A stretch of 28,225 nt of DNA from a virus (lineage: Duplodnaviria; Heunggongvirae; Uroviricota; Caudoviricetes), in IMG/VR virus record IMGVR_UViG_2526164619_000012, positions 1-28,225 of that record. One strand, given 5' to 3'. Under the pieces are notes generated by a model that worked only from the letters and a program-made list of their open reading frames with translations, did not search any database and was not told the DNA's origin. The first letter of the stretch is position 1. The number at the start of each line of letters is the position of its first letter. This document shows positions 7,324-7,987 of this stretch, in pieces. Made by a program: the position numbers and the translations under genes.

Positions 7324-7987
7324 ATCAGCGACCAATCACCACAACCTGACCACCATCCCCTTCGTCTGCCGTGCTGATCTCCTGAGATACCACGCGCGAC
7401 CCCACGCGCATTTCACCGTACAGAACAGGCAAACATTGCCCTGGGCAACCATGTTATCCAGTGAGGAGAAACAGGTGTTCTGTTTGCCGTTATCCGTTGT
7501 CTGTGTACGGGGAGTTCTGGCTTTCGGTGCCAGCATCTGTGCAACACCGCCAAGCGTCATACTGGCACCGAGAGAAAACAGCAGATTACTCGCCATAATT
7601 CCTACCCCCGGCATCCATATAGCAACCGCCATAACAGCTGCCCCCAGCACCGCCTGAAACACACCGCCACTTTTAGCTCCCACCAGACGCGGTACTATGT
7701 GGATCACTGCACCATTTGCCAGCGGCTCATTAAGACGGGCAGACAATTCGGTTTCACCTGCATCACGCCCGGCAATGCGCACCTGATACCAGCCGTCACT
7801 CAGTTTCTGACGAAACGCCGGGAGCTGTGTGGCCAGTGCGCGGATGGCTTCAGCCCCCGTTTTCACACGAAGGTCGATGCGGCGGCCAAATCGTTGCAAA
7901 TCCCCGTAAAGGCAGATGCGTGCCATTCCCGGTGACGCCAGAGGCCATTCCCGGTGACGCCAGAGGGAGTGTGTGCGTCGCTGCCAT
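7324..7987 (-). pseudogene. I: Tail assembly protein I, disrupted
   Basis: The native start MAATHTLPLASPGMARICLYG is readable from an ATG at 7987. The 22-bp tandem duplication at 7922-7965 throws this frame out, so the I body is only reached from the K frame. A further 1-nt deletion near 7428-7434 replaces the expected C-terminus (...NVLPVLYGEMRVGSRVVSQEISTADEGDGGQVVVIGR, readable in the adjacent frame and ending at 7324) with ...NVCLFCTVKCAW... Confidence 0.7.

Follow-up and report, generated by a model that had tools for sequence, protein, structure and literature searches.

The window, that is, the whole 28,225-bp stretch of DNA analysed here, holds the remnant of a lambdoid prophage, one end of which carries an ipaH effector gene (7-885). 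The window opens within this gene, which codes for an E3-ligase effector and of which the C-terminal NEL domain is present. Towards the opposite end lies a truncated mlrA (27577-28107, profile positions 29-201 of 243). In relatives the element adjoins btsSR/mlrA, and the ipaH and mlrA ends of the window fit an ipaH prophage in the btsSR/mlrA region. The tail genes are read from the minus strand and follow the lambda order, L (3' remnant), K, I, J and lom, with the side tail fibre genes last. Between K and I, the 22-mer GCCATTCCCGGTGACGCCAGAG is present as two perfect head-to-tail copies (7922-7943 and 7944-7965). The features needed to follow its effects are these:

3785..7264, minus strand: tail tip gene J, intact, 1159 aa, directly downstream of I
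7336..8628, minus strand: K-I fusion ORF, 430 codons plus stop, made up of K(1-228), I(8-178) and a 31-aa out-of-frame tail
7431..7432, minus strand: 1-bp deletion in I, GTT-TGCC here as against GTTCTGCC in the nearest E. coli relative
7850..7987, minus strand: shortened I ORF from the presumed native start ATG 7987..7985, 45 codons, MAATHTLPLASPGMA and then out-of-frame residues
7863..7865, minus strand: old K stop TGA, no longer in the frame in which K is translated
7922..7943, minus strand: repeat copy B, downstream on the gene strand, holding an internal ATG at 7926..7924
7944..7965, minus strand: repeat copy A, upstream on the gene strand, with minus-strand sequence CTCTGGCGTCACCGGGAATGGC
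8636..8827, minus strand: 3' remnant of L, its last 64 codons, with the Phage_tail_L profile, ending at an inversion breakpoint at about 8827

The two repeat units were identical in a direct string comparison, and Tandem Repeats Finder reported a period of 22 with 2.0 copies and 100% matches at 7922..7966. A pattern search for the unit returned exactly two copies in the window and none in 100 shuffles; perfect 22-bp tandem duplications would be expected by chance about 1.6e-9 times in 28,225 bp. Since base 7966 repeats the G with which the unit begins, the unit boundary can slide by one base, and the microhomology at the duplication junction amounts to 1 nt only. A hairpin promoting the duplication was considered and rejected since both the ancestral and the duplicated sequence folded no better than their shuffles (z = −0.84 and −0.89, respectively).

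The ancestral arrangement can be read from the closest complete E. coli genome in our collection, an ipaH-positive O121 strain (L001), where K (6073-6816) codes for 247 aa and a lambda-style I ORF starts from 6714. The two genes thus overlap by 103 nt (6714-6816), with I in the −1 frame of K, and the 22-mer lies within this overlap. Apart from having the 22-mer once, K of this strain is identical to that of the window; over K and I together, the differences amount to no more than the 22-bp insertion, a single 1-bp deletion and a few substitutions on the 3' side. As 22 equals three times seven plus one (22 mod 3 = 1), an additional copy carries the K frame into the I frame. Copy A codes for ...SLWRHREW in the K frame and for ...PLASPGMA in the frame that comes from the native I start, and ribosomes coming from K read copy B in the I frame (PLASPGMA...). 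In the two-copy state, residues 1-228 of K (8628..7945, start ATG 8628..8626) run directly into residues 8-178 of I over the junction ...SLWRHREW/PLASPGMARIC..., and the 19-residue tail of K (HASAFTGICNDLAAASTFV) is missing from the fusion. The I ORF from ATG 7987, in turn, ends at 45 codons because the duplication shifts its frame. Deleting one copy in silico gave back a 247-aa K, with its stop at 7865..7863 and no difference from WP_000194737.1, the K of the closest E. coli relative, together with an I ORF from ATG 7987 (MAATHTLPLASPGMARICLYGD...).

All three domains expected of the two parents were found in the fusion ORF: Prok-JAB (PF14464) at residues 3-98 (E = 1e-13), NlpC/P60 (PF00877) at residues 111-224 (E = 4.6e-12) and Lambda_tail_I (PF06805) at residues 235-318, covering profile positions 2-83 of 83 (E = 3.2e-23). 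K therefore retains its JAB and NlpC/P60 domains and its position between L and I/J and has lost its own stop at about 247 aa; I retains PF06805 and lacks a full-length ORF from its own start as well as its conserved C-terminus. The plus-strand ORFs at 7827-8303, 7699-7935, 8185-8613 and 7238-7657 matched no Pfam family, and in a simple promoter and terminator scan of 7200-8900 nothing exceeded shuffles.

A preliminary description of this DNA had reported a perfect 22-bp tandem repeat at 7922-7965, which the repeat finder, the pattern search and the string comparison all bear out. It had further placed the 22-mer in a natural K/I overlap, as is indeed the case in the E. coli relative (overlap 6714-6816), had read it as SLWRHREW in K and PLASPGMARIC in I, which translation of both frames reproduced, and had ascribed the joining of K to I to a +1 shift by the extra 22 bp, in agreement with the frame arithmetic and the translation. 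Two of the checks that it had proposed bore it out: in silico removal of one copy restored a separate K (stop 7865..7863) and I (ATG 7987), and a comparison with lambda K/I revealed an overlap of the same 103 nt and a matching I N-terminus. Two of its statements need to be modified. The 502-codon ORF at 7336..8844 exists as a mechanical ORF, but its first 72 codons are the 3' end of L read out of frame and not K. The native end of K is lost as stated, and I from its first ATG is cut to 45 codons; independent translation of I is not entirely closed off, however, since a 196-codon ORF in the I frame remains open from an internal ATG.

This internal ATG (7926..7924, Met14 of I) lies in copy B and is in frame with I. 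Public annotations place the start of I at three different codons: at MAATHTL... as in lambda (213-223 aa), at MARICLYG... (200 aa) or, as chosen by PGAP, at a GTG giving VKTGAE... (180 aa). In the nearest relatives PGAP uses the GTG (180 aa), which lies downstream of the internal ATG. The Pfam domain of I begins at residue 14 of the long form, and the GTG start would remove about 20 of its residues. We also looked at variation within the 103-nt overlap in 80 related IMG/VR loci and lambda. It amounted to 16 variable alleles, of which 12 are synonymous in I and 2 synonymous in K, and codons 12 and 13, 5' of the internal ATG, account for two of the I-synonymous changes. These two upstream sites lend modest favour to the first ATG (7987), the lambda-style one, as the probable start of I. 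If this is the native start, the duplication does disrupt native translation of I.

I carries a second lesion, which the preliminary description did not mention. The 1-bp deletion at 7431/7432 turns the last 35 residues of I (179-213) into 31 unrelated ones, and the conserved C-terminus (...LPVLYGEMRVGSRVVSQEISTADEGDGGQVVVIGR) is thereby replaced in the window. All four assemblies that carry the duplication have this deletion in common. In lambda, residues 135-223 of gpI are the part resolved in the tail tip, where they form a trimeric plug touching gpJ and the C-terminus of gpH (PMC10721106); gpK was not found in lambda virions (PMC10721106; PMC12617516). Just upstream of the deletion, I contains a small cluster of substitutions, including Y165C. 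Further on, the spacer between I and J contains, at 7285-7310 on the minus strand, a GC-rich hairpin followed by a T-run (AAACCGCCTGCGGGCGGTTTTGTCGTTT), which is kept in the relative; the simple terminator scan made no call there, and a terminator is annotated at this place in one phage record.

The duplication does not stand alone. Mapped against an intact relative (L002), the window contains at least eight inactivating lesions, of which the duplication is one. Besides those listed above, the lesions and mobile elements are as follows:

about 1068-1687: DUF4376 gene, frameshifted, neighbour of the side tail fibre gene
3053..1638, minus strand: side tail fibre N-terminal gene, 470 aa and otherwise 97.7% conserved, with a stop at codon 98 (2760-2762)
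8828..11116, plus strand: 1.5-kb inverted segment, broken within H and within L, with the 3' portion of H, then M and the 5' portion of L
9100-9867: IS1 in H, inside the inverted segment, with the 9-bp target duplication CAGATGGCC
17334-18102: IS1 without target duplication, cutting the ClpP-protease/major-capsid fusion gene
23544-24311: IS1 with the 9-bp target duplication GTATTGATT
26105-27313: IS3-family (IS600-like) element

The breakpoints of the inversion overlap by 2-3 bp only, and no IS copies lie at its borders. H and the 5' part of L contain additional frameshifts. Beyond the IS1 at 17334-18102, no match was found in the window to the portal and terminase genes of the relative. The genes left intact are J, lom, M, T, G, V, U and Z, together with a few small ones. 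With H, L, the side fibre and the capsid gene broken and portal and terminase not found, neither a tail nor a particle would be formed, and the gene content predicts a prophage remnant unable to build a tail or a head. The preliminary description had missed that the whole prophage is defective, and with this most of the biological interest of the fusion is gone. The segment between two of the IS1 copies (18103-23543) is a replication/recombination block, with a fragment of a DnaC-like loader, a DnaB-family helicase (20194-21585) and a RusA resolvase (21839-22213). The tail module of the intact relative shows no collinearity with this block, which may stem from elsewhere in the prophage or from a second one.

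Enteroinvasive-type E. coli carry the closest counterparts of this element. Their ipaH prophages (NZ_CP119441.1, NZ_CP065615.1) are collinear with the window over ipaH, tail fibre, lom, J, I, K, L, M, H, T, G, V, U and Z, about 97-99% identical in general and 100% identical in the DNA of K. They have one copy of the 22-mer, with K (247 aa) and I separate, whereas the window shows, besides the duplication, the inversion, three IS1 copies and a number of frameshifts. Among them, the prophage of FDAARGOS_943 keeps H, L, capsid, portal and terminase, whereas in strain 201805972 H is already frameshifted and a stop lies inside J. The literature (PMC8072062; PMC9046306) describes ipaH copies as typically lying amid prophage remains, and IS expansion, rearrangement and the accumulation of pseudogenes as the known pattern in Shigella. 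The window resembles this IS-driven decay in its IS1 and IS600 copies, its inversion and its truncated prophage with ipaH among pseudogenes; unlike the IS events, the lesion in K/I is a short tandem duplication.

When the intact J protein (3785..7264) was looked up by its exact sequence, four NCBI assemblies were returned, and all of them carry the duplication. Positions 1-13264 of the window are 100% identical to AKMY01000052.1 (GCA_000268165.1) of Shigella flexneri K-315, from which the fused ORF has been deposited since 2012, with a later start codon, as a "bacteriophage lambda tail assembly I family protein" (EIQ20602.1). The other three (GCA_026022055.1, GCA_026136285.1 and GCA_049894805.1) each contain the 44-mer spanning the duplication as well as the inversion junction GGTATTCGCCAGGGAGCCTGAAGCGACAAC. 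Two of these three differ from the window elsewhere, by an indel at 3095 and an SNP at 2807, and thus represent independent data and not a single data set deposited repeatedly. The duplication is hence real and has been inherited within one S. flexneri lineage, comprising K-315 and at least three further isolates.

Outside this lineage the duplication was not encountered. For these searches we used the junction-only 44-mer as query, since a 116-bp megablast cannot separate one- from two-copy loci: a one-copy locus aligns to the longer query as two overlapping pieces of equal score. The 44-mer was absent from 5,426 complete E. coli genomes, 4,206 of which hold 8,549 K/I regions, and from 50,697 phage records, and the 80 IMG/VR loci, like lambda and the nearest relatives, all have a single copy of the 22-mer. 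When scanned for exact matches, collections of genome, viral and metagenome contigs, in which the source strain is not the species representative, yielded no 44-mer, and the genome contigs no inversion junction either. The exact 430-aa fusion starting from ATG 8628 has no database record because gene callers took later starts. As far as we found, the junction itself is apparently undescribed, though the fused ORF is already public.

The comparison with lambda (NC_001416; K 14276-14875, I 14773-15444) brings out both the family relationship and the damage. Lambda shares with the window the order L-K-I-J, the 103-nt overlap with I in the −1 frame, the N-terminus of I encoded in the overlap (MAATHTLPLASPGMARICLYGD...), a closely related K tail and the same domain content. 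The window differs from it by the 22-bp duplication that fuses both genes, by an I without its native last 35 residues and by a broken tail operon. By their domains and synteny, K and I of the window are members of the lambda K/I families and are best filed as a K/I pseudogene.

Fusions of K and I do occur sporadically in databases, with the same architecture as in the window, i.e. JAB and/or NlpC/P60 followed by Lambda_tail_I. They are singletons with differing junctions, such as KWQRRT/LPLASPG or HRAW/ARICLYG, and none has HREW/PLASPGMARIC. Such fusions recur because any indel of the right phase within the 103-nt overlap joins the two frames, and singletons that arose by different indels form a pattern of accidents and not a conserved architecture. 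A conserved natural K-I fusion family was rejected on the same ground, the database fusions being singletons with different junctions.

A programmed translational fusion of the type known for G and GT of lambda was likewise considered and rejected: the K-I fusion needs a DNA insertion which is absent from all relatives. By inspection, the K frame of the repeat contains no slippery heptamer of the form X XXY YYZ.

Starting from what is directly observed, namely the duplication and its frame arithmetic, the other lesions, and the fact that the duplication is derived and has been inherited by several isolates, we are confident that a spontaneous duplication was fixed by drift in an already defective prophage, i.e. 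that this is ordinary neutral pseudogenisation without an adaptive role. A frameshifting short duplication in a cryptic prophage is a thoroughly familiar kind of event. The 22-bp duplication would have arisen in the K/I overlap of a chromosomal ipaH lambdoid remnant near mlrA, probably through strand misalignment in replication or repair. From then on, ribosomes translating K would pass into the I frame and yield the K(1-228)-I(8-178) product, and drift would have fixed the duplication in one lineage. The state of the locus is that of a pseudogene: the lesion is derived, other essential genes of the element have been inactivated independently, and the lesion is inherited, as seen in four assemblies. 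We infer that the fusion is without any function. J and lom beside it are intact, and the fusion may possibly be expressed.

The opposite proposal is that the K-I protein is expressed and has been retained, either as a peptidase with its predicted substrate in cis or in support of a tail-like particle. The three Pfam domains of the fusion are intact, as are J and lom downstream, and the idea of a functional link between K and I has a precedent in the work of Iyer et al. (2006), who predicted the ubiquitin-like domain of I to be a substrate of the JAB/NlpC-P60 peptidase K and observed a fusion of TAPI and JAB in an E. coli prophage (PMC1779556). Our data do not favour this proposal. The 35 C-terminal residues that I has lost lie inside the plug region which contacts gpJ and gpH in lambda (PMC10721106), and a particle to be supported is hardly conceivable with H, L, the side fibre and the capsid gene broken and portal and terminase not found. 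Furthermore, K-I fusions elsewhere are unrelated singletons, and the present junction occurred in none of about 8,500 K/I places of E. coli. We therefore regard a functional fusion as most improbable. A more specific variant, in which the fusion is transcribed together with J and lom and undergoes self-cleavage behind the conserved glycine of its ubiquitin-like domain, appears to us very unlikely. If it were true, the predicted processing of I by K could be tested on a natural cis substrate in this Shigella lineage.

Neutral decay leaves two further explanations to be weighed. The repeat might be an artefact of sequencing or assembly, with a genome that truly holds one copy. The K-315 sequence is a draft assembly of 2012, the 430-aa product is unrecorded and the 44-mer is missing from the large collections scanned. 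Against this, the identical duplication is present in four separate NCBI assemblies, two of which differ from the window elsewhere. In our judgement, a perfect 22-bp duplication in non-repetitive sequence is, moreover, not typical of sequencing or assembly error, and we consider an artefact extremely improbable. No more credible is a reversible switch in the manner of a contingency locus, toggling between one copy with separate K and I and two copies with the fusion: tandem duplications can revert by slippage and one copy does restore K exactly, but all four carriers have two copies and all other loci examined one, no variation was seen within the lineage, reversion would leave I frameshifted and the prophage dead, and known contingency loci consist of many short units, an architecture not shared by two copies of a 22-mer.

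With neutral pseudogenisation as the preferred reading, the biological weight of the duplication itself is very little; it is one more frameshifting indel in an irreparable remnant. Its practical consequences are of another kind. In annotation, the fused ORF ought to be marked as a K/I pseudogene rather than taken for a genuine multidomain architecture, and the same applies to the singleton K-I fusions in databases. For typing, the 44-mer over the junction provides a clean clonal marker of the K-315 lineage. The pattern of substitutions in the overlap, finally, gives modest support to the lambda-style start of I (MAATHTL...) in comparison with the two shorter starts chosen by automatic annotation.

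A last observation concerns the lambda reference itself. Upstream of its annotated K, in the region 14130-14280 of NC_001416, the first 48 or so codons of K (MTQTESAILAHARRC...ISGEPEA) are out of frame with the annotated 199-aa protein, which starts at MSPEDWL. As K of the relatives is one continuous protein of 247 aa, the lambda reference departs from them by a 1-nt frame difference within the JAB domain, which may reflect either a sequencing error or a genuine mutation in the laboratory strain.
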